Below are positions 4,196 through 45,998 of a stretch of 47,457 bases of DNA, one piece after another. The position numbers were made by a program, and so were the translations under genes. The stretch lies in the IMG/VR virus record IMGVR_UViG_3300027683_000007, positions 1 to 47,457 of that record. One strand, given 5' to 3'. The notes beneath the pieces are model-generated. The model saw only the letters and a program-made list of their open reading frames with translations, was not told the DNA's origin and searched no databases. Position 1 is the stretch's first letter; every line of letters starts with the position of its first letter. The DNA is from a virus. Taxonomy: Duplodnaviria; Caudoviricetes.

Positions 4196-4232
4196 AGCAC
4201 TCTAAATGTTCATGTTTGTAGTTTGATTATAA

Positions 4233-4255: not shown

Positions 4256-4275
4256 TCAGTATAAGGAGAAAAAGC

Positions 4276-10757: not shown

Positions 10758-11048
10758 ATGCATAATATAGATGAACTTAGAAAAGTATTTAGATCATTCA
10801 AGGATCGAATGGAATCTACAGGTAGACTTAAATCATTAAACTTAGGATGTCCTGGTGTAGAGATTGATTTAATGTTTCAAGAAGGATTTAATCAAATTAA
10901 GTGCATAGATATCTGTGGAGTAGTATGGCCTGAGATTATACTCAGATCTAAAATGTCTTATATCTGTATCTGCCCATGTAGTTACTTTGGAGCTGAATTA
11001 GCTATTAAAAAACTAAATGATTTCATAGGGGAGGAATCTAATGATTAA
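10758..11048 (+). CDS. Hypothetical Cys-rich protein
   Basis: 96-aa ORF coupled to its neighbours. Confidence 0.6.
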   Translation: MHNIDELRKVFRSFKDRMESTGRLKSLNLGCPGVEIDLMFQEGFNQIKCIDICGVVWPEIILRSKMSYICICPCSYFGAELAIKKLNDFIGEESND

Positions 11049-12243
11049 AGTTCTTATTCTTGGAATTGACGGCTATATAGGCTGGCCACTGGCTAATCAC
11101 TTACTTAACCAGTCTAACAAATACAAAGTTGCAGGACTTGACAATGGCGTGAGAAGAAAGCGAGTGATGGAATGTGGATCTAAGTCACTAACTTTAATCC
11201 ACGATAGAATTTCAAGAGAAGAATATATCACTAGTCATGTAAACTTCTTCAACTCAATATATAACTGTAATATAAATGATACTTATCTTATTAGTAAATT
11301 TCTAAAAGATTTCCAACCTGATGCTATCATTCACCTCGCAGAACAACCTTCTGCGCCTTACTCGATGAAAGACTCTTACGCATCTATCATGACACAGAGT
11401 GAAAATATCCTAGGTACTCTATCACTTCTCTGGGCTATTCATAAGGAATGTCCAAATGCTCACCTTATCAAACTCGGAACTATGGGCGAGTATGGAACAC
11501 CTAACTGTGATATACCTGAAGGAAGGATTCCACCATCTCCATGTAACTATACTCAAGGTAATGGATACCTATCTGATCTTGGTACATGTCCTATGTCAGG
11601 TCTCTTGTTCCCTCGCACAGCTGGTTCCTTCTATCACCTATCAAAAGTCCATGACACTCACAATATCGAGTTTGCTTGTCGTAACTGGGGACTTCGCTCT
11701 ACTGACGTAATGCAAGGTGTAGTATATGGTCTATATCCATACTCACCTTCTAATCCAGCACTATTAACTCGCTTTGACTATGATCAGTACTTCGGCACAG
11801 TCATCAATAGATTCATAGCTCAGGCTCTTGTCAATATGCCACTTACAGTCTACGGACTTGGACAACAGGTTCGTGGATTCCTCACACTTGAAGATTCTAT
11901 CAAATGTCTGAATATAGCTATAGATAACCCTCCTAAACCTGGCAAGTATAGAACCTTTAACCAATTTGAGCATATTTACTCCATCAATAAACTTGCAAAT
12001 GCAGTTGTAGATGCAGCCGCTGAACTTGAAATTACTGCAACTATCCAACACATTGAAAATCCGAGAGAATCTATAGAATCACATAATCACTACTACAATC
12101 CAGATAATAGTAAATTACTTAACCTAGGCTATGTACCTAATACTAACATGCACGGTGAGTTAATTAAATTATTTAACTCACTCATACCTCGTAAAGACCA
12201 CATACTCACTAACGTAATTCTACCTACTACAAACTGGAGGTAA
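11041..12243 (+). CDS. sqdB: UDP-sulfoquinovose synthase (SqdB/SQD1/Agl3 family, extended SDR)
   Basis: GIDGYIGWP, HLAEQPSAPYSM, HLIKLGTMGEYGTPN, GSFYHLSKVHD, TDVMQGVVYG, RFDYDQYFGTVINRF, PLTVYGLGQQVRGFL. Confidence 0.9.
   Translation: MIKVLILGIDGYIGWPLANHLLNQSNKYKVAGLDNGVRRKRVMECGSKSLTLIHDRISREEYITSHVNFFNSIYNCNINDTYLISKFLKDFQPDAIIHLAEQPSAPYSMKDSYASIMTQSENILGTLSLLWAIHKECPNAHLIKLGTMGEYGTPNCDIPEGRIPPSPCNYTQGNGYLSDLGTCPMSGLLFPRTAGSFYHLSKVHDTHNIEFACRNWGLRSTDVMQGVVYGLYPYSPSNPALLTRFDYDQYFGTVINRFIAQALVNMPLTVYGLGQQVRGFLTLEDSIKCLNIAIDNPPKPGKYRTFNQFEHIYSINKLANAVVDAAAELEITATIQHIENPRESIESHNHYYNPDNSKLLNLGYVPNTNMHGELIKLFNSLIPRKDHILTNVILPTTNWR
12159..12181. repeat. 23-bp dispersed palindrome copy (inside sqdB)
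   Basis: GTTAATTAAATTATTTAACTCAC. Confidence 0.8.
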
Positions 12244-12525: not shown

Positions 12526-12727
12526 CCTAGACATCAAATCTATCTTAAACATGGATAATGATGAAGGTATTGAGCACATCAGACAAATACGTCTATCTAG
12601 ACGTAACGCTGCTACAACCTCAACCTCAAAGTCTACAACTTCGAAAAAGAAAAAGGTTACAGTAGAAAATGTAACTTCATTACAGGCTTCTGAATTACTT
12701 AAACTCATTGAGGAGGGGCAGCTATGA
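12509..12727 (+). CDS. Hypothetical basic protein
   Basis: ORF overlapping both neighbours. Confidence 0.6.
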   Translation: MANLNDLDIKSILNMDNDEGIEHIRQIRLSRRNAATTSTSKSTTSKKKKVTVENVTSLQASELLKLIEEGQL

Positions 12728-14067: not shown

Positions 14068-14071
14068 CTTC

Positions 14072-14113
14072 TAACTTAGTAGAAAGTATAATAACGTACT
14101 TTCTACTAAGTTA
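14072..14113. repeat. Perfect 17-bp inverted repeat with 8-nt loop
   Basis: TAACTTAGTAGAAAGTA-taataacg-TACTTTCTACTAAGTTA. Confidence 0.9.
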
Positions 14114-14132
14114 ACTAAATAATTTAATAGGA
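14110..14132. repeat. Degenerate 23-bp palindrome copy
   Basis: GTTAACTAAATAATTTAATAGGA. Confidence 0.55.
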
Positions 14133-14138
14133 GGAGTT

Positions 14139-14378
14139 ATGATCTTAAGAGTAATCAGCTACGACAGTGAAAAAGGTGGCCATATCTGTGAAGATGTTGA
14201 GGGTTCTATATGGCCACATGCAGTTGATTTAAAGATAGATGGAAACCTAAAGGATGTACCAGACAGCGCACTGATAGGGAAACTTATTGAAGTTGATCGT
14301 CTACAACCCTATGTCTCAATTGGAGTTGGCTGTAGATGTGTAGGAGAACCAATCTGGAGCAAGGTAAAAGTTAATTAA
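14139..14378 (+). CDS. Hypothetical protein
   Basis: AGGAGGAG RBS. Confidence 0.65.
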   Translation: MILRVISYDSEKGGHICEDVEGSIWPHAVDLKIDGNLKDVPDSALIGKLIEVDRLQPYVSIGVGCRCVGEPIWSKVKVN

Positions 14379-14392
14379 AAAATTTAACTATC
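14370..14392. repeat. 23-bp dispersed palindrome copy
   Basis: GTTAATTAAAAAATTTAACTATC. Confidence 0.9.
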
Positions 14393-14409
14393 TCATTGGA
14401 GATAAGATA

Positions 14410-26932: not shown

Positions 26933-28393
26933 TTAATAACCTTCTACTCTCTGAGTATCAGACCATGAGAAGCCATGGATTTGACCTCTTATTTTCATAT
27001 AGTCTAACTCAATAGGATATTCATATACAGTTGATCTTACTCTAAATCTAAAGTCTACTCCATGACACTTTGGCCATGCCTTACCTGCTGGATTTACTAA
27101 GAACCAACTAATCTGCCTAAACTGATCTTTATGTGACATTCTATAATCTACCGAGACATATAAGAAATCAGATACATCTGTACCAAGTTCTATACTCTTA
27201 ATAGTCTTCGGCTTTCTCGTACCAAAGTCATAGATATCTGTGCAGATTTCTAACTTAGGAGTAACTATCTCACCATCACTTGATACATAAAGAATGTTAC
27301 TCTTTGAACCTAATCCAGTTATATTCTCAGGACCTTCTCCAAAACTTTTAGATGTTGGACTATATACATAACCCTTTGATCCATCACAGATATAGAGTAA
27401 ATTAGTTTCTATATCCAAAGTTAGTATAATAGTCCCCATTGTAGACAAATACTCTGAATAATCTAACTTTGTCAAGGTCTCATCAAGTTGGAATAGTTCT
27501 CCTAGTACATTTACAAAGAAATGTCTTGAGTCACTCCCTGCAAATGCACCTTTGTTTTTCAACCCTAATCTATAAATAGTATCCATTCCCCAGTGGATAC
27601 CACTTGCTTTCATCAACGTAACTCCATTCTCACCATAGACTACAACTTTATCTCCCAACTTTCTAATATGATAAATACAGCCAGCCCAATCCATAGGACG
27701 TTCGCCAGCTATATTACTCTCATCAATATCAAAGTTGAAATATCCGATCTTTCCCCATCTTACTACATTACATCTTGGGAGTTGTAGTATAACAGTTCCA
27801 CCAGTAATTACTACTGAGCACAGTTCTAAGGCAGTTAGAGTAACAGTACTTCCAACATCAATTCCACCACTTAATATACTAACCTCAATCTCTATAGCAT
27901 ATAGTGAAGGAGCCTTATCTTTAATCTCTCCTATCACACTCATTACTATCTCTATAATACCAGCATCACCAGATTGATCTAGTTCAGAATTAATAGTAGC
28001 TGGTGGATTATAGTTTAATACAAAATAGAATGAGATACCTATATCAATAGGATCAGGGTCAATGATTAGTGGCGCAATAGTAGGTGGAGGCGCAGTAGTA
28101 GGTCCAACTGTTGTTGGTGGAGCTGTGGTTAAGGTAGTAGTTGGAGCCGTAGTTGGTACACTAGTAGTTGATACACTAGTGGTTGGTGCAGTGGTTGTCA
28201 GTGTAGTAGTAGGAACTACAGTAGGAGGAGCTGTAGTAGGTATTGGAGTAGTTGGAACTGGAGTACTAGGCGGAGATGTAGTTGGAGCAGCCGTTGTTGG
28301 AGCTGGAGTAGTAGGTACCAGAGTACTCGGAGCCAGAGTAGTAGGCAACAAAGTAGTAGGTACTGGAGTAGTAGGAGGAACTGTAGTTGACAT
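26933..28393 (-). CDS. Tail protein: mucin-like PT-rich N-terminus plus the C-terminal part of a P22 gp10-like nozzle beta-propeller
   Basis: About 105 aa of PTTx(A/P)P repeats; NVVRWGKIG...AG...DFGTRKPKTIKSIE...DFRFRV. Confidence 0.6.
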   Translation of the reverse strand: MSTTVPPTTPVPTTLLPTTLAPSTLVPTTPAPTTAAPTTSPPSTPVPTTPIPTTAPPTVVPTTTLTTTAPTTSVSTTSVPTTAPTTTLTTAPPTTVGPTTAPPPTIAPLIIDPDPIDIGISFYFVLNYNPPATINSELDQSGDAGIIEIVMSVIGEIKDKAPSLYAIEIEVSILSGGIDVGSTVTLTALELCSVVITGGTVILQLPRCNVVRWGKIGYFNFDIDESNIAGERPMDWAGCIYHIRKLGDKVVVYGENGVTLMKASGIHWGMDTIYRLGLKNKGAFAGSDSRHFFVNVLGELFQLDETLTKLDYSEYLSTMGTIILTLDIETNLLYICDGSKGYVYSPTSKSFGEGPENITGLGSKSNILYVSSDGEIVTPKLEICTDIYDFGTRKPKTIKSIELGTDVSDFLYVSVDYRMSHKDQFRQISWFLVNPAGKAWPKCHGVDFRFRVRSTVYEYPIELDYMKIRGQIHGFSWSDTQRVEGY

Positions 28394-33119: not shown

Positions 33120-33536
33120 CTATATAGGGCTAGTAGTAGGCACCTCAGTGGTCTGTTCTACCGCAGCAGCAGTCGTCGGCACATCAGTTGAACGTATGCT
33201 ACCAGTAGGCCCGTCAATGAATACGTGCCAGGTCAGACCGTCAGAATAACACAGAGCTCGATCGCACTTAGTGCTCAGCTGGATATCTCCATCCCAACAC
33301 TCACTATCATCATTATTGTCCTCGATAGTGATAGTGGTCATCGGTGCGAAGGACCTAGCAACGATAGAGTAGATCCTACCAGCTGCCTCGACTACTGGCG
33401 GAAGTGTAATAGTTGTAGAGACAGAGGCAGTCGAAGGTCGAAGGACATAGTCCCTCACAGTCATAGTATAATCACCACCTGGAGCATGATACTTGTCAAC
33501 CACGATAGAATGGCTGTCACTCTTGAACTCAAGCAT
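33120..33536 (-). CDS. Putative capsid decoration/accessory protein with PTT-rich tail
   Basis: TITLPPV, LCYSDGLTW; C-terminal VPTT..QTTEVPTTSPI; lies between scaffold and MCP; codon bias. Confidence 0.55.
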   Translation of the reverse strand: MLEFKSDSHSIVVDKYHAPGGDYTMTVRDYVLRPSTASVSTTITLPPVVEAAGRIYSIVARSFAPMTTITIEDNNDDSECWDGDIQLSTKCDRALCYSDGLTWHVFIDGPTGSIRSTDVPTTAAAVEQTTEVPTTSPI

Positions 33537-33547
33537 TGTAATTCCTC

Positions 33548-34378
33548 CTATCTTCTGCCCACTACCTTAATCATCTCGTCTATTTGAGACTTGACTGAGT
33601 TAGGTTCAGCGGGACTTGGATTTTGGACTCTGGAACCCTTTCTCCTAGGAAGCGGAGGAGGTGCATCATCGTCCTTTGGTTTATTTGTATCTTTAACTTG
33701 TACCTTAGATGGTTTAGGTAAACCTAATCTTTCCCTAGTCTCATCACCTACCTTTCTGAGTACCTCGGCAATCTTAAGCCCAGGACTTTCTTGAACTACT
33801 TCATTAAAAACTGCGCTAACAGTCTTCTTCCAATTACTTAGATCAGTATTTTCCTTATAAAACTCCTCAGTCATTTTCTGAAGTGTGTTTTTTAACTCTA
33901 GCTGCTCTGTGACTTTGGTAGGAAGTGTGTTAAAAGTCTCTTCCTTTGCCTGTTTTACAATCCCTCGAGTGTCAGTAACTGCCTGAGAGTAGATTTTGTT
34001 AAGTAACTTATTAAACGCGGCTCTGTCATCTTTAATCTCATCAAGATCTATCCCATCGAGAAAATCCTTTTCACCGATAGGAGGATCCGTTGCAGGAGGT
34101 TTCTCATCCTTCTTTGTCTTATCTCTGGCTGACTCAAGTTCGATAATCTTAGCTCTGAGTTTTGCAACCTCATCTTCTTTCTCTTCCTGCTTCGGAGGAT
34201 CCGTAGACGGAGACTCGGCCTTATCATCATCTTCTACATCTTTATCAGGTGGATTAGTCGCAGGTGGAGAATCATCTGGTTTCTGAGGTGGAGGATCATC
34301 TTCAAACTCCAAAATCTCATCATCAGACACTCTGTTCATAGCATCTAACATCTCATTAATTTCAGTCTTCACATCCAT
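33548..34378 (-). CDS. Capsid scaffolding protein
   Basis: Acidic and Pro-rich N-terminus, coiled coil; lies between portal and MCP. Confidence 0.7.
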   Translation of the reverse strand: MDVKTEINEMLDAMNRVSDDEILEFEDDPPPQKPDDSPPATNPPDKDVEDDDKAESPSTDPPKQEEKEDEVAKLRAKIIELESARDKTKKDEKPPATDPPIGEKDFLDGIDLDEIKDDRAAFNKLLNKIYSQAVTDTRGIVKQAKEETFNTLPTKVTEQLELKNTLQKMTEEFYKENTDLSNWKKTVSAVFNEVVQESPGLKIAEVLRKVGDETRERLGLPKPSKVQVKDTNKPKDDDAPPPLPRRKGSRVQNPSPAEPNSVKSQIDEMIKVVGRR

Positions 34379-34702: not shown

Positions 34703-36652
34703 CTATTCTCCTAAAGGTACGAGATTTCCAGCTTTTACTTCCCTATCCACAGTCTCATCAGGCATAGTTTGGACCTGAGTATTTTGAGATACTCGTCTAA
34801 AGTCCTCGATATTCTTTGCACCAAGTTGCTGAGCTATATAGGTGAATATCTTAAATATGTCAAAAGTTTGATATAACTCAGGAGTCTGTACTATAGTTGA
34901 AAACATCTGTACCCAGGATTCAGAGAAATTTCCACCAGGGATTGAGCCGTCCCTTACAATAACATCATAGTTAACTGCAAGATCATAAGGAGTAACTCTG
35001 ACATTATGCTTCCCTCCAAACATTGTATCGAGTTGTTGTTGAGTCTTACCAACAACTTTAACATATGTTTCTTTGGACATATACTGCTGAGTATGAACAG
35101 CGAACATAGTACCTATATCTTGCATGAACTGCATTCCAACTATCATAGCCAATCGCTGAAGACGGCTAACAGCAGATCCTCGAGTGCCTTGAAACTCACC
35201 TTTAGTTAAACGCTCTGGTCCACCTTGACGTAGCGATCCTTGCATCGACTGGTCAGCGCCTGAGATACGATCCATCCAAGATGTGATATACTGACTATCT
35301 CCTATATTATTCCTAGTAATATCATTAACTGCAAGTTGCTGTACTACATTATTAACTCCATGTCCCCAAGCAGGACGTCGAAGTCTAATTAACTTGCCAG
35401 GCTCTGGATCTTCTAAATCCTTAATATTAACCAAGTAAGGATCAACAACTAGCATGTCATTGATAGACTTACGTACATTAGCTATGTGTGAGTTGAAGAG
35501 AAAATCAAGTGTTCCTTGGAGACCATAAAGTATTTCCATTCGACTCTGTGGTGTTATTGAGTATCCATCAAACTCAGGACTTGCAACTGCGATTGGATAA
35601 AGTCCATGATTGTGGTTAGCTTTGTGGCAACTAATAATCACATCATCTGATGCAAGTGCAAAGAACCACTTTTCAGGAAGTTCACTACTTCCAAGTTTCC
35701 ACTCTTTCGGAATAAGATTGATATACATCTTAATTGTGTCTATAGGATTAGTAGACATCACTAAGTTTCTAGTACTACTACCTCCACCATATTTAAGATT
35801 TCTATCACTCTGATCGTTAGCAAAAGTTGATCTCTTATTCGTTTTATCTCGAAGATACTTTACATTAAAGAAAGTCTCATCATGAGATTCTTGTGATAGA
35901 AGATTCATATAGTTATCTCTATCTATCCATCCTTGAAATTCCCCATCTTGAATATTATCACTAGAGACAGATGGATCTGGTAGCCACATATAAGGATCGA
36001 TAGATGAGAGATCATTCCCTTCAAAAATCATCGAGTCAATGAATTCTACATGATCTACAGAATTCTGAGAAAAAGGACTTTCATCAATAACAGATCCTTT
36101 TACCGGAACTCTTCCATACATCTTTCTCCATCCAGGAATTCCTATACCAACTCCATATGCGAATGAGTCTCTTAGAATAGTGTGAAGTGAAAGAGATACT
36201 TTAGTCTTAATACAATGTAATCTAACTACCATCTCCAATAGCATTGCACCCCTAGTATCATCATCTTCAACTCCCTCATACTGGAACATAGGGTCTTGCA
36301 TGTAAGCCATTATCATGTAAGTAAGCAATGCTTCCATCATAGAGTAAGTATATGGAAATACTATGGAGATAGGCTTTCTTGGATCTTTACTTTTAAGTTC
36401 TTTCTCTTTCATACTTGTAGGAATGTAAGTAGTAAGAACTTTATCTACTTCATTCCAGGAAGAGAATCTCTTACTCATTTCATTCCTAGACTCACATGCC
36501 CTCTGCCAAATCTTATTCCTTATATCATCATGAAGAGTACTTCCAGGCTTAAGATCCAGATCGTAAGGATAAGAATAGTCAAAACTATGTCTTGTATAGA
36601 TTGACGTATCTACTTTATAATTTCTAGGATCACCAGTTACGATGTAAGGCAT
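34703..36652 (-). CDS. Portal protein (podovirus type)
   Basis: 649 aa; RDSFAYGVGIG, IDPYMWLPDPSV, EPGKLIRL, RISGADQSMQG; position. Confidence 0.85.
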   Translation of the reverse strand: MPYIVTGDPRNYKVDTSIYTRHSFDYSYPYDLDLKPGSTLHDDIRNKIWQRACESRNEMSKRFSSWNEVDKVLTTYIPTSMKEKELKSKDPRKPISIVFPYTYSMMEALLTYMIMAYMQDPMFQYEGVEDDDTRGAMLLEMVVRLHCIKTKVSLSLHTILRDSFAYGVGIGIPGWRKMYGRVPVKGSVIDESPFSQNSVDHVEFIDSMIFEGNDLSSIDPYMWLPDPSVSSDNIQDGEFQGWIDRDNYMNLLSQESHDETFFNVKYLRDKTNKRSTFANDQSDRNLKYGGGSSTRNLVMSTNPIDTIKMYINLIPKEWKLGSSELPEKWFFALASDDVIISCHKANHNHGLYPIAVASPEFDGYSITPQSRMEILYGLQGTLDFLFNSHIANVRKSINDMLVVDPYLVNIKDLEDPEPGKLIRLRRPAWGHGVNNVVQQLAVNDITRNNIGDSQYITSWMDRISGADQSMQGSLRQGGPERLTKGEFQGTRGSAVSRLQRLAMIVGMQFMQDIGTMFAVHTQQYMSKETYVKVVGKTQQQLDTMFGGKHNVRVTPYDLAVNYDVIVRDGSIPGGNFSESWVQMFSTIVQTPELYQTFDIFKIFTYIAQQLGAKNIEDFRRVSQNTQVQTMPDETVDREVKAGNLVPLGE

Positions 36653-36669
36653 CTTAGTACTCCAAATGA

Positions 36670-36692
36670 GTTAATTAAATTTTTTAACTAAG
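36670..36692. repeat. 23-bp dispersed palindrome copy
   Basis: GTTAATTAAATTTTTTAACTAAG. Confidence 0.85.
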
Positions 36693-37008
36693 TTGTTGGT
36701 ACAATAGTTGTTGGTAACACAGTTGTGTCAGGAGCTATAGGTTCATAGACTCTAATCTCAGTCCAATAGCCATGATATTTAGAACCAACATTAGAAGCAA
36801 ATGCCTGAACTTTCCATATACCAGAAGTATTAAACTTCACAGCTGCTTGTATCTTTGTATTTATAGTAGGGTGAATAGTAGCTGTCCAATATCCCTTTAC
36901 ACCATAAGGATTTTGCCACTTAACCCTTAAATCTGTAAATGCTGTGAGATTCTTCTGAGTAGAAAGAATCACAAGAACATCATCTTGTACGAATACTCTG
37001 TCAGACAT
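36688..37008 (-). CDS. Ig-like (BppU-like) structural protein with PTT tail
   Basis: FNTSGIWKVQAF; C-terminal APDTTVLPTTIVPTT. Confidence 0.55.
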   Translation of the reverse strand: MSDRVFVQDDVLVILSTQKNLTAFTDLRVKWQNPYGVKGYWTATIHPTINTKIQAAVKFNTSGIWKVQAFASNVGSKYHGYWTEIRVYEPIAPDTTVLPTTIVPTT

Positions 37009-37015
37009 ATCTGCC

Positions 37016-37243
37016 TCATTTTTCAAGGATGACTGAATTCAAACTTACAATATCAGCAACAAGTGAATCCTTAGTCATCGTATCTTGAATACCAGAGTTT
37101 AACCCAGCAGTATCATTTATAATAGAATATTCTTCCCACACTAGCCCTAATGATGGATACATTAGGTGACTGAACTCTGGCCAAGACCTGAGTGGAAGTC
37201 CTCTATGTGGAAAGTCAGAAAGCGCTAGGTAGTTGCATGCCAT
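37016..37243 (-). CDS. Hypothetical protein
   Basis: 75-aa ORF in the late block. Confidence 0.5.
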   Translation of the reverse strand: MACNYLALSDFPHRGLPLRSWPEFSHLMYPSLGLVWEEYSIINDTAGLNSGIQDTMTKDSLVADIVSLNSVILEK

Positions 37244-37244
37244 A

Positions 37245-37267
37245 GTTTATTAAATTTTTTAATTAAC
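37245..37267. repeat. 23-bp dispersed palindrome copy
   Basis: GTTTATTAAATTTTTTAATTAAC. Confidence 0.9.
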
Positions 37268-37268
37268 T

Positions 37269-38174
37269 TTAAGCCATATTAAGTGTTACTGCACTTCTAT
37301 TTCCACTTGAATCTACTGTCATAGATATACGATTAAGTGAGTTTGCTTGATTTCTAAACACTACAGTAGCAGTACCACCACCAGAAGCTCTACCACAAAC
37401 ATAGGCGATTAACAATCTCATTGCCTGGCGAAGAGTGATAGTCCCTTCAACATCCTCATCAAGAATCAGATCTACAGTTGGCAAGGATCCAATGGCAAGT
37501 GACACCGCATCAAGTTGATCACTTAATGTCTCAAGCGTATCACTATCTGCACCAGTACGAGCTACAGATGTAGCTCCAGTGTCTACAGACTTCAATGGAA
37601 ATGCAGTGGACTCATCAAATTTTGCACTTGTAATAGCATCATCTGCAAGAGTCATAGCTGAACCAACTGCAGCTGGTGATAAAGGAAGATTATCAGTCTT
37701 AAGTTTGATTGCATCAACTATACCATCAACAGTGTCAATCTTACCATCTAAGGTAGTGCCAGTATCAGTTAAGATATCATCAACTTTACCATTAATAGTA
37801 ATGGCATAAGCAAGAGCTCCAGAAGCTCTTTGAAGTGAAAATGAAGCAAGGACTTTAACAACTATTTCACCATCAATAGTTTCATCAGGACTTAAGATAA
37901 CAAAGTACTCATTTCCATCTTCCCAGAACCCTATATCACCAGTATCGTTAGAAGTATCTATCCTTAGTTGATGAAGACCGACTATAGAATCAAAGGGACT
38001 TGTCATAGTCAGGCCATTTGTAGATGATTTCTGAGTGGCTGAATTACCCTTATATATAATTATATCACCTGACTCAAGAGCACTTGAAGGAGCTACTGCT
38101 GCACCTTCCTTATCATGAGTAGTGAAAAACACAACAATCTCAGAGTCTTCTTTAAAATCACCTAAGTAATTCAT
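37269..38174 (-). CDS. Putative fibre/structural protein
   Basis: Beta-rich N-domain, KVDDI/KIDTVD/KTDNLP coiled segment, C-terminal TLRQAMR...VFRN..RISMTVD..GNRS. Confidence 0.6.
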   Translation of the reverse strand: MNYLGDFKEDSEIVVFFTTHDKEGAAVAPSSALESGDIIIYKGNSATQKSSTNGLTMTSPFDSIVGLHQLRIDTSNDTGDIGFWEDGNEYFVILSPDETIDGEIVVKVLASFSLQRASGALAYAITINGKVDDILTDTGTTLDGKIDTVDGIVDAIKLKTDNLPLSPAAVGSAMTLADDAITSAKFDESTAFPLKSVDTGATSVARTGADSDTLETLSDQLDAVSLAIGSLPTVDLILDEDVEGTITLRQAMRLLIAYVCGRASGGGTATVVFRNQANSLNRISMTVDSSGNRSAVTLNMA

Positions 38175-38416
38175 TGAACTAGTCTCCCAGACAAAATAGA
38201 CTCATTGATTAGCTTACCACTAACTAACACACCAATCACAGGTGCTAAGGTTGTAGGTAATAAAGTTGTAGGTGCTAAAGTTGTTGGCGCCAGTGTCGTT
38301 GGTGCTAACGTAGTCGGCGCTAGTGTTGTAGGAGCTACTGTTGTCGGAGCGACAGTAGTAGATACTATTCCACTAGGCTGATAAAGTAAAGATGCGTATT
38401 GAGTTAAGAAACTCAT
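38171..38416 (-). CDS. Small mucin-like protein (TT(L/V)(A/L)P x8)
   Basis: Protein-level repeat with diverged synonymous codons; overlaps the next gene by 4 nt. Confidence 0.7.
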   Translation of the reverse strand: MSFLTQYASLLYQPSGIVSTTVAPTTVAPTTLAPTTLAPTTLAPTTLAPTTLLPTTLAPVIGVLVSGKLINESILSGRLVQ

Positions 38417-38417
38417 C

Positions 38418-38747
38418 TTATGAGATCTTTAACAGATTCCAGTCAAAGTTTCTACCAGTGCCAGCTGTCTGAGTCAGTGTACAGATCAGCTCAGTATCAA
38501 TAGGTACAGGAGCTGAATAGACATTAGGCTCTATCTGTTCATGGCTGAAGATCCGCTCAAAGGCAAGTCTGGAGGTCTTACCTGAAGCCACCTTTGTCTT
38601 CATTCTTAATGTCAAGTAATCTCCAAGAGCCATGTTTGATAGATCTACAACTAACACATAGACAGCTGCTGTAGTCTCTGTATCAAGCGTATGCTCAGTA
38701 CCAATGACTGCTAATTGAGTTGCTGATCCTACACTAGCGACTGACAT
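38418..38747 (-). CDS. Beta-sandwich structural protein
   Basis: AAGGAG before ATG 38747; YVLVVDLSNM, LTQTAGTGRNFDW. Confidence 0.6.
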   Translation of the reverse strand: MSVASVGSATQLAVIGTEHTLDTETTAAVYVLVVDLSNMALGDYLTLRMKTKVASGKTSRLAFERIFSHEQIEPNVYSAPVPIDTELICTLTQTAGTGRNFDWNLLKIS

Positions 38748-38757
38748 GGTAGACTCC

Positions 38758-39555
38758 TTAATAAAGTCCAAATAAAGTTACATAAGCTTCTCTGCCAGCT
38801 GAAGCAGATGAGCAGATAGCTGCAGCAGATATTCTTGTTCCAGCCTTTATACTGATAGGTAACATCCAAGGATAAGCTTGGGCTCCATAATCATTTTGTC
38901 CATCAGCTCCAATAACACCCTTAAGTCCTATATCAACTTCACTCCCAGCAGCACCTATAGCTATTTTAACTCTACGAGTCGCAACACGTCCAAAAGTAAA
39001 TGTGGGAAGAGCCATCAGCATTAGAGCCTTATAATTGTTAGCTGAAGAAGCCACCAGTTCAGTATAAGCTCCCCAAGTATTAGCTACTCCACCTGGATCT
39101 ACACTAGTACCTCTTGATGATCCAGATACTGTACCTATAGTATCACAGACTCTATAGGACTCAAACAAAGTATCATATTTAAAAGTTGTAATACCTATAT
39201 ATTTTTTAGAAAGTTTATAATCAGACTGACATCTAAAGGCTACCCTCACACCTTTCTTAAGTCTCATTGGAAAAGGAATTGTGTAAACTCCAGCAGCATC
39301 TAGAGCTATGCCTAATATAGGTATATCTGCTATTATTATTTTTTCACTACCAGCTGCTCCAATAGCCATATCTATTAAATATCTTTGATTATAGTTAACA
39401 TAATCATGTCTGATGAAGAAGAATGAAGTATTTTCAGATAATGAAGCAGTTAGTTGAGCATAGTTTCCCTTAGAATTATTACTGTTTGGAGCAACAACTT
39501 CAACTGTACCACTATAATCATATACAAGTTCATTAAGTATTGGAAAGTCGCCCAT
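38758..39555 (-). CDS. Structural protein with two tandem beta-sandwich repeats (paralog of 39555-40355)
   Basis: GAAGSE and K.G.R motifs occur twice. Confidence 0.7.
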   Translation of the reverse strand: MGDFPILNELVYDYSGTVEVVAPNSNNSKGNYAQLTASLSENTSFFFIRHDYVNYNQRYLIDMAIGAAGSEKIIIADIPILGIALDAAGVYTIPFPMRLKKGVRVAFRCQSDYKLSKKYIGITTFKYDTLFESYRVCDTIGTVSGSSRGTSVDPGGVANTWGAYTELVASSANNYKALMLMALPTFTFGRVATRRVKIAIGAAGSEVDIGLKGVIGADGQNDYGAQAYPWMLPISIKAGTRISAAAICSSASAGREAYVTLFGLY

Positions 39556-40355
39556 TAGGATAACCCATATAAGACTACATCAATTAGTCTATCAGTCGCA
39601 TCAGTTGTACCAGATTGAGACCTTGCAGCTATTCTTGTACCACTCTTTATCTTCACAGGTATAACTGCTGTTAGACCAGATACAGCTGTTACTATAGCTG
39701 CACCTTGTTCATTTACAACAGCAATAGCAACTTCACTTCCTGCAGCTCCAATTCCTATACCTATATTAAAGAATGCATTAGCTCTTGCATTATTAGTTTG
39801 ATTACCCATACCTATTATCAAAGCCTTGTGATTCTCAGGAGACGATGCAGATAGCTCAGAGTAACCTCCCCAAGTCCATGCTGACCCACCACTGTCTAGG
39901 CTAAGTCCACCACTGTCAGCTGAAGCAGCTCCGTAGGTTAATACTTTAGAATAAGTTGGAATCCTAGTATCGAAGTTAATCAAGCTAAAATGCACATCAA
40001 CTGTTGCACCACCAGTCGATGATTGGACTCTGCATGCTATCCTAGTCCCAGCTTTAATAAATATAGGAAAGTGTACTGCAGACAATGATCTTCTAGTGTA
40101 GGTAGCTCCACTAATTATAATATCTGCAACTACTATCTGCTCACTACCAGCAGCACCAAAAGCCAGGTCTAGTAAATAATCTGCATCATTACTAACATAC
40201 TCCATATTTAATACAAGTCCACAAGCATTTACACTTGTAGAAGCCCAAACTTGAGAATAATTTCCTTTAGTGTTGGCCGAAGCATTAGCTGTAAAAGTGA
40301 CAGTAGTACTGTCAAAATTTCCAGCTGTAAGAGGTCTATGTGGCCAAACAGTCAT
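39555..40355 (-). CDS. Structural protein with two tandem beta-sandwich repeats
   Basis: GAAGSE and IK(A/S)GTRIA motifs occur twice. Confidence 0.7.
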   Translation of the reverse strand: MTVWPHRPLTAGNFDSTTVTFTANASANTKGNYSQVWASTSVNACGLVLNMEYVSNDADYLLDLAFGAAGSEQIVVADIIISGATYTRRSLSAVHFPIFIKAGTRIACRVQSSTGGATVDVHFSLINFDTRIPTYSKVLTYGAASADSGGLSLDSGGSAWTWGGYSELSASSPENHKALIIGMGNQTNNARANAFFNIGIGIGAAGSEVAIAVVNEQGAAIVTAVSGLTAVIPVKIKSGTRIAARSQSGTTDATDRLIDVVLYGLS

Positions 40356-40365
40356 TATTAATCCA

Positions 40366-40388
40366 GTTAATTAAAAAATTTAATTGTC
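40366..40388. repeat. 23-bp dispersed palindrome copy
   Basis: GTTAATTAAAAAATTTAATTGTC. Confidence 0.9.
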
Positions 40389-40790
40389 TTTTATCTTACT
40401 AATACTAATACTAGTCCTAGCATCAGTAATTCCTCTAACATACCCACTCAAATCACCTATCAATTCCCTAAGTCTTCTAAATTCAGCTTGGTTAATATTG
40501 TCCCTTTGTTCAAGTATTCCCTTTATATCCTTTATATCCTCTTTAAGTGTCATTATACTTGATGATAACTGATCTGAGGTCAATTTGGCTTCCTTCACAG
40601 CTAATGCTGCATCTCTTACTACTCTTTCGTGATCTGGACATCTTTTAAGAAGACATTCCTGACCTTCAGTTATATCTTCTTTACACTTCTTCCCAAATAC
40701 CAATAGTCCTAATTTATGTAAGACTAAGAGTATAGTACCAACTATTGTCAGTATACCTACTATGAGCTCTGGGCTTAATGTAAAGGTCAT
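40380..40790 (-). CDS. Membrane-anchored coiled-coil protein (possibly lysis-related)
   Basis: N-terminal TM helix, C-terminal heptads. Confidence 0.55.
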   Translation of the reverse strand: MTFTLSPELIVGILTIVGTILLVLHKLGLLVFGKKCKEDITEGQECLLKRCPDHERVVRDAALAVKEAKLTSDQLSSSIMTLKEDIKDIKGILEQRDNINQAEFRRLRELIGDLSGYVRGITDARTSISISKIKDN

Positions 40791-42328
40791 TAAGCAGCTC
40801 TCCAGTTTTCCAAAGGCTCCTCATAGTCAAGTTCCTTATACTCAGCTTCTGAATCCTCTGGATCAACAACAGGAGCGAAGTATCTCTCTCCAAGTTCCAG
40901 CATCTCAATGATATAAGCTAAGCAGTCCATAAGATCCCATAAAGCAGATCTTGGAAACATCATAAGTTGTGACTCAAGTCGCTTGATAGTTGCACAAGAA
41001 GCATTGTGATAGATATAACCCATTCTATAATAAGGTACAAGCTCCTTAATTCGAAGTTCTTTCTTCATCCCTCCTCTAGCATTTAACCAGACGAGTTCAA
41101 AGAACTTTCCACGCTTGAACATCTCATTTTTAATAGGTTGTTTGATAAACTCGTTTAGTGATGTGACTTCAACTCCAACAACTTTCGCATTAAGATTAAT
41201 AGCCATTCCGAATAAGGCTGAGTATATCTCATCAGGATACATCTTCTCAGATATAGCATCTCTGACATAAAGTCTTGCATTTCTAAGATCTATTCCTATG
41301 CCAACAATAGCACTTTCAGCTGAATGGATCTTAACGGTCTTGGCAGGGTCAAGAATTACTACTGTCTCAATATACTTATCACACTGAACATCTGGATCAG
41401 TAAGTTTTAAGTCTGAATCTGACTTAGGATGTTCTAGAGGCATGCTGTAGTAATGAAAGTATTCCTTTCTAAATATCGCATCTTTTGTTGATACAGGTAG
41501 GTTTCTTAACTCTCTAAAAAATACATCAGTTTGACCAGCACCTTGGTGCTCTTCCCACTCCTTCATTATATCTTCATCAGACATAAAGTCAGGTGCAGTT
41601 GATTTGAAGTTATCATCGCACGCTTCAAGACGAAGTCCATCCCACTCAGGAGAATTAAGTAGTTTCTGTAACACAGAGTCTTCATGCTTAAGTGTATCGA
41701 TGTAGACTATCTTCCAATTTCTATGTAGTCTAGGAACTGCCTTAATCACATCTGCATAAAGCCACTGATACCAGCCTTTGCGAATCTCCTCATTCTCGAT
41801 AGATTCAGGGTCTTCTAAATCATCAATGATTATAAGTCCTGGTCGATCATTCTTGAATAAGACTCCACGGACTTGCTGACCAGCACCTCTTGGCCATACG
41901 AGTGTGTCATAAGCTACCCAAGCTTTCTTGCTGAATACTTCCTCAAACTCATGTTGTTTGACATCTCGCTGTTTGAAGTCTCCGAAGTAGTGCTTAATCA
42001 TCTTATTGGTCACTAACTCACGTCGTAGATTTTCAGTCTGAAGTGATGCTGCATCATGAGATTTATTGATATAGCAGATAAAGTTAGTGTGGTGAAATAA
42101 GATGTACCTAGCCATGAGAGCAAGAGCTACGATAGAGGTCTTTCCCCAACCTCGAGGAGCCGCAATAGCATTCTTGTTACTAGGGCTATCTATTTTTTCA
42201 AATATCTTCCCATGCACTTCTTCAGCAAATGGAAGTGTAAAGCGCTCAGGGAAAAAGGTCTTAGCACATGCCCTTGTATTTACAGAGCATACTGATAAGA
42301 TCTTTTGTATTTCAGGGTCTTGTTCCAT
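40790..42328 (-). CDS. terL: Terminase large subunit
   Basis: AAPRGWGKTS, QVRG..RPGLIIIDDLED, nuclease LDPA, GVE, LMMFPRSALWDLMDCLAY. Confidence 0.93.
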   Translation of the reverse strand: MEQDPEIQKILSVCSVNTRACAKTFFPERFTLPFAEEVHGKIFEKIDSPSNKNAIAAPRGWGKTSIVALALMARYILFHHTNFICYINKSHDAASLQTENLRRELVTNKMIKHYFGDFKQRDVKQHEFEEVFSKKAWVAYDTLVWPRGAGQQVRGVLFKNDRPGLIIIDDLEDPESIENEEIRKGWYQWLYADVIKAVPRLHRNWKIVYIDTLKHEDSVLQKLLNSPEWDGLRLEACDDNFKSTAPDFMSDEDIMKEWEEHQGAGQTDVFFRELRNLPVSTKDAIFRKEYFHYYSMPLEHPKSDSDLKLTDPDVQCDKYIETVVILDPAKTVKIHSAESAIVGIGIDLRNARLYVRDAISEKMYPDEIYSALFGMAINLNAKVVGVEVTSLNEFIKQPIKNEMFKRGKFFELVWLNARGGMKKELRIKELVPYYRMGYIYHNASCATIKRLESQLMMFPRSALWDLMDCLAYIIEMLELGERYFAPVVDPEDSEAEYKELDYEEPLENWRAA

Positions 42329-42329
42329 A

Positions 42330-42352
42330 GTCAGTTAAAAAATTTAAGTAAC
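42330..42352. repeat. 23-bp dispersed palindrome copy
   Basis: GTCAGTTAAAAAATTTAAGTAAC. Confidence 0.85.
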
Positions 42353-43315
42353 TTCCCAAGGTTTAATAGATATTAATTCTTCGTAGCTATACTTCTTCAC
42401 ACTCATCAACCACTCATACTCAGCTTTACCTACCTCTACAGCTTTCTTCCAATAGTCATCTACTTTTATCTTATGTCTATTAGTAAATTGAGTTTCTCCT
42501 AGCTTAGCCATCTCATATCCATGCTTTTCTCCAGCTATTACCATATATGAGGCTAGGACTCCAAAGCCATGAGGATAGTTCCCATTTGATGTGTAGACCC
42601 TATATTTATACTGTCCAAGATTAATGATTTCCTGAGTATAAGGTCCTATGTGGATGATAGGATCTGTAGATATAGCCCAATTCTCATATCCCATCATAAG
42701 GGATTTAACTTGCTGTATGGTCTCAGCTCCACCCCAGGATAGCATAGAATTAGCATGAGTCCCATAACCTTTAAGTGTGTCAAGATACCAATCTCTTCTA
42801 CAAATCCAGGGCATGAACTTCCAGTACATCTTTCTTTGCTCTCTATAAGCCGTATCCCAGCCTCCATTAGGTAGGCCAGTAGGACTTACTTTGAGTGAGT
42901 GCTTTTGTCCAGCATCTCCTTGATGCGCCCAACGAATTGGAGGATGGCCAAATCCAAGGGACTCATCATCTTTATGCGAGTCCATAAAAGCAATAGAATC
43001 TTTAAGGGTGTTATGACCAAAGATAACATGAGAGTCCACACAGAATATATATTCTCCCTTAGCTTCCTTTGCAGCTGTCATTCTAGCGCTAGTAAAGCAG
43101 GGAAAGTCTTGTTTGATTATCTTGACAAGTTTAGACTTCACCCAACCATTAGGACAAGCGACTGGTAGGAGTTTACTAAACTTATCATCCGAGTTATCAC
43201 AGATAACTACTTCAGCTTTGCAGTCTAATGACTTAAATGATTCTAAGCAACTATTCAAAGTCACATTTAGCATCACTAGGTCATTTCTATTACTTATGAT
43301 AACTGATAGTTTCAT
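42344..43315 (-). CDS. GT-A glycosyltransferase (GT2/GT27 polypeptide-GalNAc-transferase-like)
   Basis: LSVIISNRN, EVVICDN, SARMTAAKEAKGEYIFCVDSH, MLSWGGAE...IIHIG. Confidence 0.85.
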   Translation of the reverse strand: MKLSVIISNRNDLVMLNVTLNSCLESFKSLDCKAEVVICDNSDDKFSKLLPVACPNGWVKSKLVKIIKQDFPCFTSARMTAAKEAKGEYIFCVDSHVIFGHNTLKDSIAFMDSHKDDESLGFGHPPIRWAHQGDAGQKHSLKVSPTGLPNGGWDTAYREQRKMYWKFMPWICRRDWYLDTLKGYGTHANSMLSWGGAETIQQVKSLMMGYENWAISTDPIIHIGPYTQEIINLGQYKYRVYTSNGNYPHGFGVLASYMVIAGEKHGYEMAKLGETQFTNRHKIKVDDYWKKAVEVGKAEYEWLMSVKKYSYEELISIKPWEVT

Positions 43316-43942
43316 TTAATTCTTTCTTTCTAACAAGTAAATAACTTTAACACGATCTTTAGAAAGTTTATAAAACTTTGTAGTTAATGAATAATTAGGA
43401 AACATCTTATAAATTTTCCTAGTCATCTTACTAAATGACTGCCAGTTCATTCTAAAGTTATTTTCTTTACCTCTAGTAAATCTGTACGATTCAGGTTCAT
43501 TGTCACCTACTATGAAACTATTAATATCAAAAGCTATTTTCTTAACATTAAGCTGTTTTATCTTATCTAATATCTTATCCTGCTCTTCATTTGTAAGATG
43601 AATGAGAACTGCAGAACATAGTATAGAATCCTTCTCATAAAACTTCTCAAGTGAATCTTCAACTATGTTATGTAGAAAGATATCATGTTTAGGAAATCTA
43701 TCCTTAATCCTCTGAACCATGTCTGGAGATGAGTCCAGGCCAGTGTAATTATCTATATAATCTTCAAATTCATACTCAGTTAAATAATTTAAGAATCTTC
43801 CAAAACCACAGCCTAAGTCAATCCAACTATTACAATCTTCTATTACAAATCTAAACATATCCTTAGAATACTCAGGAACAATCTGTCCCCAGGTACTCTC
43901 AGCCCTTTCAACTTCTATTTTAGACCAGTTGTTGACTTGCAT
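43316..43942 (-). CDS. Class I SAM-dependent methyltransferase
   Basis: IDLGCGFGR, YTGLDSSPDM, SAVLIHL; start likely ATG 43942. Confidence 0.85.
   Translation of the reverse strand: MQVNNWSKIEVERAESTWGQIVPEYSKDMFRFVIEDCNSWIDLGCGFGRFLNYLTEYEFEDYIDNYTGLDSSPDMVQRIKDRFPKHDIFLHNIVEDSLEKFYEKDSILCSAVLIHLTNEEQDKILDKIKQLNVKKIAFDINSFIVGDNEPESYRFTRGKENNFRMNWQSFSKMTRKIYKMFPNYSLTTKFYKLSKDRVKVIYLLERKN
43775..43797. repeat. Degenerate 23-bp palindrome copy (inside the methyltransferase gene)
   Basis: CTCAGTTAAATAATTTAAGAATC. Confidence 0.45.
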
Positions 43943-44750
43943 AGTTCTTCCTATACCATTGAAATGTAGAATAGATACCTTCTTCCAAGTCAATAGATGT
44001 TATTATATCAGTCTTTGCTTCAGCAGACTTAACTTCTCCATCTATAGCAGATCCATGAATGATAGTAGGTTTATAATTTAAGATCGATTCTGACATTCTA
44101 GAGATTATTTCAGCTAAAGATTCAATAGAAGTTAACTCTCCACTAGCTATATAACCTTCTTTACCTCTCAAGATTGCATCTACTACATCAGCTACGTAGA
44201 TAAAGTCTCTATGCTGAGAGCCATCACCATAGATAATCATAGGCTCTTTGTTGATACAGTTCTTAATAAACGCATGGATTACGCTAGATTTATGTATAGA
44301 ATATGGTCCATAGACACTTGAAAGCTTGAGGACCTTAATATCTAATCCATAAGCCTCTCTATATGCATTACAGAGTGCTTCACAGGCAAGTTTTGATGCA
44401 AGGTAGGGTGACTTTGATAGTTCTGAACTGGCTGAGGAGGTGAAGATTAAATGTTTGAATCTTTCAGACCTAAGTAAATCAAGACAGTTTATAAGACCTA
44501 AGCAGTTTTTTGTAAAAGTTTGTCTTGGATGAGCTATTGAACATCTAATATTCGTTTCTGCAGCTAAGTGTATTAGTATATTACCTTTAATTATTGGAAG
44601 AGGGTATGTGATATCTGCATAGAGGGCATCTAAGGACCATGGATATCTTGCACTATTGATGTCTATTACTCTAAATTCCCTATTAACCTTTGATAGGCTA
44701 AGGCAGAGATTAGTCCCTATAAATCCATGTCCTCCAGTTATCACACACAT
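43920..44750 (-). CDS. NAD-dependent nucleotide-sugar epimerase (extended SDR, GalE/WbpP-like)
   Basis: ITGGHGFIG, HLAA, FTSS, PYLASK, VYGP, YGDGSQHRDFIYV. Confidence 0.88.
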   Translation of the reverse strand: MCVITGGHGFIGTNLCLSLSKVNREFRVIDINSARYPWSLDALYADITYPLPIIKGNILIHLAAETNIRCSIAHPRQTFTKNCLGLINCLDLLRSERFKHLIFTSSASSELSKSPYLASKLACEALCNAYREAYGLDIKVLKLSSVYGPYSIHKSSVIHAFIKNCINKEPMIIYGDGSQHRDFIYVADVVDAILRGKEGYIASGELTSIESLAEIISRMSESILNYKPTIIHGSAIDGEVKSAEAKTDIITSIDLEEGIYSTFQWYRKNYASQQLV

Positions 44751-44753
44751 AGT

Positions 44754-44957
44754 TTAGGAGTCCTGCCAGAATATGGCGATTAAAGAGTAAACAACCACTA
44801 TTCCGCCTAGAATATTACTATACTGATCTTCGTTAATTTTAAATCCAGCAAGTGCAGCAAGCATAAGAAGACCTTTATAGGTACTAGGCTGCTGTAAGCT
44901 TTCTAGAACAAGATCAATCTTTGTCTTTGGCTTTGGACTAGTCATCTTATACTCCAT
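44754..44957 (-). CDS. Putative holin (two TM helices)
   Basis: QPSTYKGLLMLAALAG...ILGGIVVVYSLIAIFW. Confidence 0.55.
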   Translation of the reverse strand: MEYKMTSPKPKTKIDLVLESLQQPSTYKGLLMLAALAGFKINEDQYSNILGGIVVVYSLIAIFWQDS

Positions 44958-44958
44958 A

Positions 44959-44981
44959 GTTTATTAAAAAATTTAATTAAC
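44959..44981. repeat. 23-bp dispersed palindrome copy
   Basis: GTTTATTAAAAAATTTAATTAAC; fills almost the entire intergenic gap. Confidence 0.9.
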
Positions 44982-45410
44982 TTATTTCTCCTGCTCAAGA
45001 CCTCCTGGAAGTTTAGGAGATTGATAGTATGCGATTCCAAAAGCTACTCCACCAGCACAGTTGACTGGAACATCAGACCAGGCGATAGTAGACTCAGACA
45101 CCTTCTCACTTCCAACATATCGAACAGATTTAAATCCAACAAAGTATTTACCTTCAACTGTGAAAGTGAAAGTTTTACTGGTACCTGTAATTTCTCCTTC
45201 GTAAGGTGTACCTTCAGGAGCTGTAGAAAGCTTGATGTAAGGCTGATATTTAATGGTAGAGTCAGGAGGAATAGGAGATCCATCTTCAAGCTCTGTCGTA
45301 GCAGTCCACTTAACTGTTTTCTGATTAGCAGTGTACCAAACCTGAGAGAACACTGGAGTTGCAATTAGAAACATCGCCAAGATCACATACACCAAGTACT
45401 TTCTAATCAT
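44982..45410 (-). CDS. Secreted fibronectin-III-like protein
   Basis: Signal peptide (VFS/Q), TVKW..Y..EGKYFVG..SES; C-terminal PKLPGGL. Confidence 0.6.
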   Translation of the reverse strand: MIRKYLVYVILAMFLIATPVFSQVWYTANQKTVKWTATTELEDGSPIPPDSTIKYQPYIKLSTAPEGTPYEGEITGTSKTFTFTVEGKYFVGFKSVRYVGSEKVSESTIAWSDVPVNCAGGVAFGIAYYQSPKLPGGLEQEK

Positions 45411-45952
45411 CTCACACCTTCCTCAAGTTGTTTAAATCCAGCTTCTTTAATCGCCTCTAGCCCTCGCCTCTTGAAATCATCTATTTCTTCAACAGTCGCA
45501 TACGCATGAAGTGATCGAGTATCGACTTTGGTCGGAGCTCTCATTCCAGCGATGTCTAATGTCACAGTGTCAGCTGCACTCTTTCTCAATACAGGGTCTA
45601 TCCCAGGAGACTCAAATAACTTCCTATATACATCTAAAGCTTTCAAAGTTAACTCTTTAACTTGCTCTCCTACCTTAACATAGTGTTCATCTCTCTCACC
45701 TCTAAGATCTGATAATTTTTCCTTACCAAGCGTCGAGTTTAGTGTATTACTTACAGTCTGAGGAGTGATGTTAAGGATCTTAGCTATCTCCGTATTCTTC
45801 ATCCCTTGCACTGCAAGACCTAGAATCTCATGCGATCGCTGCCAAAGTTGCTTAATGTCATGAGAGTGTTCCCGTCCTGATCTACGATTATCTATATCCC
45901 TCACCTCAAATCCATAAAGAGATAGTTGAGTCTGGGAACTTTCTCTGTCCAT
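45407..45952 (-). CDS. Putative terminase small subunit with HTH
   Basis: GMKNTEIAKILNITPQTVSNTLNS; first gene of the late block; start likely ATG 45952. Confidence 0.6.
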   Translation of the reverse strand: MDRESSQTQLSLYGFEVRDIDNRRSGREHSHDIKQLWQRSHEILGLAVQGMKNTEIAKILNITPQTVSNTLNSTLGKEKLSDLRGERDEHYVKVGEQVKELTLKALDVYRKLFESPGIDPVLRKSAADTVTLDIAGMRAPTKVDTRSLHAYATVEEIDDFKRRGLEAIKEAGFKQLEEGVR

Positions 45953-45998
45953 TACTTCATCTTTCCTAATCAAGTATTTAACTTATAGTTAAAATTTA

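Follow-up and report, generated by a model that had tools for sequence, protein, structure and literature searches.

Glycosylation of phage particles by phage-encoded enzymes has been described in mycobacteriophages, where passages of several papers deal with Che8 gp108-110, Corndog gp38 and Myrna (PMC12619734, PMC12363180, PMC11256854, PMC12582341), and the giant viruses (chloroviruses and Megavirinae) carry genes of their own for glycosylation of capsids or fibrils, according to parts of PMC9614988, PMC7826918 and PMC10117803. With respect to sulfosugars, Agl3 supplies sulfoquinovose for glycoconjugates (PMC4388408), the UDP-sulfoquinovose synthase of a Mu-like virus has been interpreted as an aid to host N-glycosylation (part of PMC7785012), and a 2026 review on sulfoquinovose cycling does not mention a role of phages in those of its passages that were found (PMC13436972). 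The stretch of uncultured-phage DNA analysed here (the window, 47,457 nucleotides, IMG/VR virus record IMGVR_UViG_3300027683_000007) encodes, between its terminase genes, a 323-residue glycosyltransferase without a lectin domain. It is fairly likely that this enzyme O-glycosylates the threonines of Pro-Thr-Thr (PTT) tags on predicted virion proteins with a sugar that is probably derived from UDP-sulfoquinovose; the glycosylation of Thr tags on the virion, taken by itself, is considered likely. The gene order, the motifs, the likeness of fold and metal site, the late-operon position and the co-occurrence of the transferase with Thr tags and with the UDP-sulfoquinovose synthase SqdB were observed directly. 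Because the transferase, among its relatives, is present or absent together with the tags, and mostly with SqdB, it likely coats the virion with a possibly sulfonated sugar.

The transferase and its genes

The window approximates a near-whole genome of podovirus type, with SU10-like capsid and portal proteins, PolA, ligase and primase recognized in a Pfam scan of its proteins. The order of genes on the late strand is terS, two small genes, an epimerase gene of the short-chain dehydrogenase/reductase (SDR) type, a methyltransferase gene, the transferase gene and terL:

42344..43315, minus strand: glycosyltransferase of 323 aa; PF00535 over residues 4-117 only, E 7e-11
43316..43942, minus strand: class I S-adenosylmethionine-dependent methyltransferase, 208 aa from the ATG at 43942
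43920..44750, minus strand: short SDR nucleotide-sugar epimerase/dehydratase of 276 aa; PF01370, E 6e-37; GxxGxxG and S..YxxxK intact
40790..42328, minus strand: terminase large subunit (terL), context; phrog_38, E 1e-65
45407..45973, minus strand: terminase small subunit, context; weak PHROG hit, homologue in OP947158.1 annotated terS

The first-pass annotation of this DNA had proposed three coupled late genes in the terS-terL interval, and these are real: three minus-strand open reading frames (ORFs), in which the methyltransferase ATG at 43942, preceded by an AGGAAG site, lies within a 23-nt overlap with the end of the epimerase gene, and the methyltransferase TAA abuts the transferase ATG. 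The overlap and the abutting stop and start argue that the coupling is genuine; the TTG at 43993 given by the ORF program is probably not the true methyltransferase start.

The motifs that had been quoted for the transferase are all found in the protein. Its predicted metal site is formed by D94-S95-H96 and H222, with WGGAE at 194-198; D94, H96, G209 and H222 are invariant in an alignment of 33 close and distant relatives, and D94, H96 and H222 align in a profile alignment with the corresponding residues of polypeptide N-acetylgalactosaminyltransferases (ppGalNAc-Ts), the animal enzymes with which mucin sugar chains begin and in which the D-x-H motif and the distal His are ligands of manganese. 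The AlphaFold2 model (pLDDT 94.7) has a GT-A fold with a helical C-terminus of its own. Foldseek query TM-scores were highest for ppGalNAc-Ts (0.54-0.65), those for TarS/TarP being 0.48-0.53, while a BFVD structure search gave distant GT-A proteins only (TMq no higher than 0.60) and a single-sequence PDB search matched only the GT2-like N-terminal half. With a wide profile of 33 sequences, in which distant full-length relatives, picked for their full-length match, had been added, ppGalNAc-Ts took the top five places, ppGalNAc-T10 being the best (E 9.5e-27) and colinear through DSH, GY, WGGE, K-W-x-G and the distal His. Foldseek and the wide profile thus support the earlier proposal of a ppGalNAc-T-like catalytic architecture that lacks the lectin domain.

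With regard to class, PF00535 (GT2) scores 42.9 bits against a cut-off of 23.3 and covers residues 4-117, the nucleotide-binding half, and the GT2 motif DxD is not present, the transferase having D-S-H where TarS has D-S-D. The GT-A catalytic domain and the D-x-H motif with distal His are as in GT27, and neither a C-terminal ricin-type lectin domain nor an N-terminal membrane anchor gave a Pfam match in the 323-aa protein. The ppGalNAc-T segment MAGG reads KFMP or KGMP in the transferase family; of the WGGEN segment, WGG and a nearby acid are kept, as WGGAE or WGGGD. Because the lectin domain is lacking and the donor pocket is altered, the transferase is placed by its sequence as a GT27-like catalytic domain outside GT27 proper, and it would act as an initiating Thr O-glycosyltransferase. 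No second glycosyltransferase, which might have been another user of UDP-sulfoquinovose, was found among the 60 window proteins (ORFs of at least about 75 aa) scanned against Pfam.

A protein search yielded 209 relatives of the transferase among 599 candidates, the 120 that were listed being 42-100% identical, and 74 IMG/VR loci carry the gene. GTDB genomes gave only two short contigs of metagenome-assembled genomes, one of them phage-like, with no host indicated, and among 50,697 GenBank phage records there was one weak partial match, with no record matching beyond 37% of the query. The family is almost exclusive to phages. By portal and genome layout, the closest named phage is Desulfofustis phage LS06-2018-MD01 (OP947158.1). 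A Che8-type enzyme was considered and rejected, as gp110, gp109 and gp108 gave hhalign probabilities of 0.1, 26 and 11% and have only a generic GT-A start in common with the transferase; the Corndog and Myrna enzymes were set against it only through the search of GenBank phage records.

Some relatives are fused to methyltransferases, N-terminal in P0102 and P0104 and C-terminal, apparently of a different kind, in P0109. Two tandem transferase paralogues are present in six records (L026, L040, L041, L048, L060 and G078), the second divergent and with RGPP or RSMP replacing KGMP; it may extend the glycan or take another donor. B12-binding radical SAM domains fused to GT2 domains adjoin the transferase in L027 (4046-6061) and L036 (3540-6332).

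The position of the transferase between the terminase genes would also suit an enzyme that adds sugar to modified bases while the DNA is packaged, DNA-glycosylating GT-A enzymes of phages being known (10.1101/2023.12.21.572611), and the genome encodes a ParB domain fused to an N6/N4 DNA methyltransferase (12724-14067), a core gene of the phage family. The ParB-methyltransferase, however, is present in transferase-free genomes also, in other phages the transferase gene lies next to portal, capsid or poly-Thr genes, and the Pfam-scanned window proteins include no thymidylate-synthase-like hydroxymethylase, 5-methylcytosine methyltransferase or TET/JBP-type protein. DNA hypermodification, for which no base-hydroxymethylating partner was found among those proteins, was rejected and is regarded as highly improbable. 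Another core gene of the family (14410-16953) encodes a uracil-DNA-glycosylase domain fused to a family A polymerase.

Threonine-rich proteins as candidate acceptors

The late proteins of the window contain 27 PTT in 9,025 residues, where 1,000 shuffles gave 2.0 on average and never more than 8, and the seven copies at 38171-38416 are encoded by seven different codon sets. The proteins concerned, together with the predicted scaffold, are:

33120..33536, minus strand: core gene that immediately precedes the gene of the major capsid protein, beta domain of about 110 aa and C-terminal Thr tail (STDVPTTAAAVEQTTEVPTTSPI); most conserved candidate acceptor
38171..38416, minus strand: protein of 81 aa that contains seven repeats of the PTT(L/V)A type (nt 38249-38347); candidate acceptor
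26933..28393, minus strand: conserved tail-region protein of 486 aa with a mucin-like N-terminus, 78 of residues 1-105 being Thr, Ser or Pro (about nt 28079-28393); candidate acceptor
36688..37026, minus strand: 112-aa protein ending in PDTTVLPTTIVPTT; candidate acceptor
33548..34378, minus strand: predicted scaffold, whose acidic PxT(D/N/E/K) motifs are commoner in genomes with the transferase

The tail encoded at 33120-33536, the most conserved of the candidates, was not among the findings of the first-pass annotation. In its folded part this protein is similar to N-terminal domains of tailspikes and to capsid-spike domains of Pa223 (best E 2e-6, TMq about 0.5), so that, on the strength of the structural comparison, it is probably a spike-like protein of the surface.

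The distribution of these proteins was compared across 39 larger records: 25 transferase-bearing ones, of which 22 belong to this phage family and 3 to other types, and 14 transferase-free family members; the terL scans took in the best 80 of 325-433 loci each. Homologues of 36688..37026 were found only in transferase-bearing genomes (12/23 versus 0/14), and none of the 14 transferase-free records has an ORF with at least three PTT. Among family genomes that have a 33120 homologue, its Thr tail was seen in 21 of 22 with the transferase and in 1 of 12 lacking that enzyme; this single record, G013, is a fragment without the terS interval and carries SqdB. When a set of 50 taxa was scored, the PTT tail was present in 25 of 26 transferase-bearing taxa and in none of 24 transferase-free ones (25/1/0/24), with the proviso that the set includes partial contigs and that those scored as transferase-free could hold the gene elsewhere. 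Omitted from this count were G002 and G025 (no 33120 gene), G005 and G013 (record does not span the interval from terS to terL), G020 (terL not whole) and G032, G036 and G039 (other phage types). A tail was defined as PT[TS] in the last 20 residues, an earlier rule of at least seven Thr in the last 25 having misclassified four short tails, and poly-Thr proteins, which a Thr-density filter requiring Pro misses, were counted without that filter. The state of the transferase changes at least eight times on the terL tree of the 50 taxa.

In G037, the one transferase-bearing taxon without the tail, a protein with 35% Thr is encoded just upstream of the transferase (41234-43717, minus strand). Poly-Thr genes lie directly upstream of a divergent transferase in the unrelated G036 (44662-45756, minus strand) and G039 (36541-37890, plus strand), with up to 46% Thr and a run of about 60 Thr, and a PTT gene lies just downstream of it in the unrelated G032. 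The mucin-like acceptors that had been proposed are thus strongly supported, both by the tail counts and by Thr-rich genes beside the transferase in three unrelated phages, and the Thr-rich phage proteins are, to judge from their sequences, probably the acceptors of the enzyme. Among homologues of the scaffold (G016-G033), at least three PxT(D/E/N/K) repeats are found in 14 of 23 transferase-bearing genomes while 12 of the 13 other genomes have none or one, only the fragment G013 departing from this; these repeats might recruit the enzyme to proheads.

Several other features of these regions were noted. In L067 (8010-8880) the transferase and the 33120 homologue are both broken by stops or frameshifts on the same contig, through either decay or sequencing error. 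An unrelated long GT2-like gene of 700-940 aa is present in the transferase-free family members G003 (12555-14651), G005 (2760-4862), G007 (37994-40129) and L407 (4720), in the same terS-terL slot in G003, G007 and L407, and the 33120 homologues of its carriers end in short Tyr/Asp tails (GYDYP) or in none. Hexapeptide acetyltransferases follow the transferase in G036 and G039. In the window, two tandem paralogues of 265 and 266 aa (38758-40355) with internal AIGAAGSE repeats and no Pfam or PHROG match are probably virion accessory proteins.

The donor sugar and competing readings

A gene of the opposite strand, to which the first-pass annotation had referred only in passing, bears on the donor:

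11041..12243, plus strand: UDP-sulfoquinovose synthase (SqdB/SQD1 orthologue) of the replication arm, candidate for donor supply

This protein matches SQD1 over its full length (E 1.4e-96), and the NAD motif, K-L-G-T-M-G-E-Y and Y-H-x-S-K are kept in 20 of 20 phage copies; by these signatures it is a true SQD1 orthologue with predicted synthase activity. SqdB is encoded by 19 of the 23 transferase-bearing family genomes and, among records at least 89% complete, by 16 of 18 with the transferase versus 0 of 17 without it (positive control run). It tracks the transferase far better than do the epimerase and methyltransferase, though its gene is distant. No SqdB was found in the 50,697 GenBank phage records. 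A viral SqdB scan took in the best 80 of 122 loci, of which 17 larger new records were examined as a forward test through SqdB alone. Six of the 17 belong to the phage family, and all six have Thr-rich tails (five of the six by the fixed regular expression; one is probably the same phage as G013). The single complete record among them carries the transferase, and the other five end before its slot.

The epimerase accompanies the transferase in 8 of 23 family genomes and the methyltransferase in 7 of 23, and all three are together at 12 of 74 loci, the epimerase and methyltransferase being limited to the window's own clade of the transferase tree (100% support). The three-gene cassette was therefore rejected as a universal unit and is a local variant only; the co-occurrence survey that the first-pass annotation had called for went against its general cassette and in favour of the Thr tags, which track the transferase. 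Elsewhere the slot is occupied by other transferases, sulfotransferases, acetyltransferases, an aminotransferase, radical-SAM proteins and other methyltransferases (of 35 scanned neighbours, 26 gave a Pfam match), a pattern of constant transferase and changing neighbours that is expected of an initiating enzyme with variable tailoring. Sulfotransferases adjoin the transferase in L010 and L041. In the window, the methyltransferase would be a glycan O-methyltransferase and the SDR epimerase a donor-remodelling enzyme, as their sequences suggest.

A number of observations weigh against the reading of the transferase as a GT27-like enzyme that decorates the virion with a sulfosugar. The profile of the close family puts TarS first, for the N-terminal half only, and ppGalNAc-T10 at E 9e-4 over positions 4-223; a GT2 chondroitin synthase is also matched over its full length by the wide profile (E 1.5e-21); and Foldseek E-values are equal for TarS/TarP and the ppGalNAc-Ts, at a root-mean-square deviation of about 6 Å, so that the Foldseek check of GT27 versus GT2 favours the ppGalNAc-Ts in TM-score and neither group in E-value. 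PxT motifs are present on the scaffold also, which counts against the reading because a scaffold would not stay on the particle, and the tail rule was fixed after the data were seen. Corrected for the tree, the association of transferase and tail is suggestive only and not significant, because there are only five supported independent pairs (4.5 concordant, 0 opposite, p 0.06-0.125); that of transferase and SqdB is likewise not significant because the independent pairs number three (all concordant, p 0.25). Eleven of the 17 new SqdB-bearing viral records are outside the family, with weak or no transferase matches except in G087, and the poly-Thr DNA pattern in the SqdB-bearing outsiders is at control level only. 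G087, a phage of another type, has a distant homologue of the transferase (E 1e-41) in a polysaccharide-type cluster with SqdB (36358-43980; L526), and no Thr tag was found within 15 kb of that homologue. Finally, SqdB is missing from five records that do carry the transferase, namely the complete genomes G028 and G037 and, from unrelated phages, G032, G036 and G039, and the donor is therefore not fixed in the family.

These last five records, estimated complete or unrelated, are also what would be expected if the same Thr acceptors received a neutral sugar from UDP-GalNAc or UDP-Gal, made by the epimerase or the host, and if SqdB were an auxiliary gene for sulfolipid or glycans of the host, as viral SqdB was read earlier (part of PMC7785012). 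The closest solved relatives of the transferase use UDP-GalNAc, and the epimerase is coupled to the transferase in the window's clade; the epimerase is missing, however, from 15 of 23 transferase-bearing family genomes, the segment of the GalNAc pocket is not conserved, and SqdB is missing from 17 of 17 near-complete transferase-free relatives, which would be unexpected of a free-standing auxiliary gene. A neutral donor is accordingly considered unlikely. The UDP-GalNAc donor that the first-pass annotation had envisaged is unsupported, with KFMP or KGMP in place of MAGG and SqdB as the gene that tracks the transferase, and the donor is more probably UDP-sulfoquinovose or an epimer of it. For this genome in particular, the prospects of a sulfoquinovose-derived donor are evenly balanced.

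The cluster of G087 would agree with a transferase that acts on surface glycans or receptors of the host, in serotype conversion or superinfection exclusion, the tags being host-glycosylated or mere flexible linkers. A weak PHROG match to a GtrB-like family (E 3e-4) and the resemblance of many neighbour genes to lipopolysaccharide or capsule enzymes would agree with it also, but the absence of tags from 24 of 24 transferase-free taxa and the adjacency of transferase and poly-Thr genes in three unrelated phages would be left unexplained; in addition, the gene belongs to a packaging and structural operon, and no flippase or integrase was found among the scanned window proteins. An action on host glycans is judged improbable, and glycosylation of the phage's own Thr tags is preferred.

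Proposed pathway and comparison with known systems

In the pathway proposed for Thr-tag glycosylation, SqdB would convert UDP-glucose of the host and sulfite to UDP-sulfoquinovose. Should the host reduce sulfate, a possibility at which the closest named phage hints, SqdB would have plenty of sulfite to draw on. In the window's clade the SDR would remodel this donor, perhaps into its 6-sulfo-galacto form through epimerisation at C4; using a divalent metal at D94/H96/H222, the transferase would move the sugar onto Thr of the tags on the capsid-adjacent spike-like protein, the tail protein and the small accessory proteins; and the methyltransferase would cap the sugar by O-methylation. The particle would thereby acquire an anionic, extended, mucin-like brush, for which roles as a shield against proteases, in adsorption to minerals or biofilm matrix, or in decoy binding are plausible. 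A broader and more tentative possibility is that of a widespread family of small phages with a self-made sulfomucin coat, in which sulfoquinovose (or its O-methylated 6-sulfo-galacto epimer) would be attached directly to Thr of PTT tags, the hosts would probably be sulfate-reducing or other anaerobes, and the enzymes would be a prokaryotic-virus sister or precursor of the eukaryotic mucin-initiating enzymes.

If the proposal is true, glycosylation of phage particles reaches well beyond the mycobacteriophages, with acceptor tags that are genetically visible, gained and lost with the enzyme, and viral UDP-sulfoquinovose synthase, so far read as a gene of host metabolism, becomes a supplier of the virion coat. 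A new linkage of sulfosugar to protein is predicted, and the literature searches gave no report of a direct sulfoquinovose-O-Thr linkage. The enzyme would then be a small and soluble peptide O-glycosyltransferase of one domain that acts on Thr-rich tags, of use in glycoengineering and for the question of the origin of mucin-type initiation. Virion glycosylation by phages is itself known, and what is new here is the enzyme family, the type of acceptor and the probable donor: full-text literature yielded no GT27-like phage enzyme, mucin-like phage acceptor tags or virion sulfoquinovose, a scope outside which lie the primary mycobacteriophage paper (Freeman et al. 2023) and the supplement of PMC7785012, which may bear on novelty.

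The mycobacteriophage systems resemble this one in that phage-encoded glycosyltransferases are inferred to decorate the phage's own particle (passages of PMC12619734, PMC12363180 and PMC11256854), but their acceptors, as those passages describe them, are the C-termini of capsid and tail-tube proteins, as opposed to the dedicated Thr tags on accessory proteins that are the predicted acceptors here. The giant viruses, in the parts of the papers cited above, likewise encode donor synthesis, transferases and methyltransferases of their own, which vary between clades, but have eukaryotic hosts, very large genomes and other enzyme families and acceptors. Desulfofustis phage LS06-2018-MD01 shares the genome layout and a portal protein 42% identical, but is without the transferase, SqdB, the 33120 homologue and PTT repeats. 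The phage SqdB has full-length homology to SQD1/SqdB/Agl3 and their catalytic motifs, and differs in being phage-borne and in tracking a candidate protein O-transferase. From the ppGalNAc-Ts (CAZy GT27; T2, T10) the phage enzyme differs in having neither ricin lectin domain nor membrane anchor, in its own helical C-terminus, its cytoplasmic nature, the changes of MAGG to KFMP/KGMP and of WGGE to WGGAE/WGGGD, an identity of 13-17% and a donor that is probably not UDP-GalNAc; it shares with them a GT-A domain colinear over about 220 residues, D-x-H with the distal His, GY..WGG(x)E..K-W-x-G and, as the tags suggest, Pro/Thr-rich peptide acceptors.

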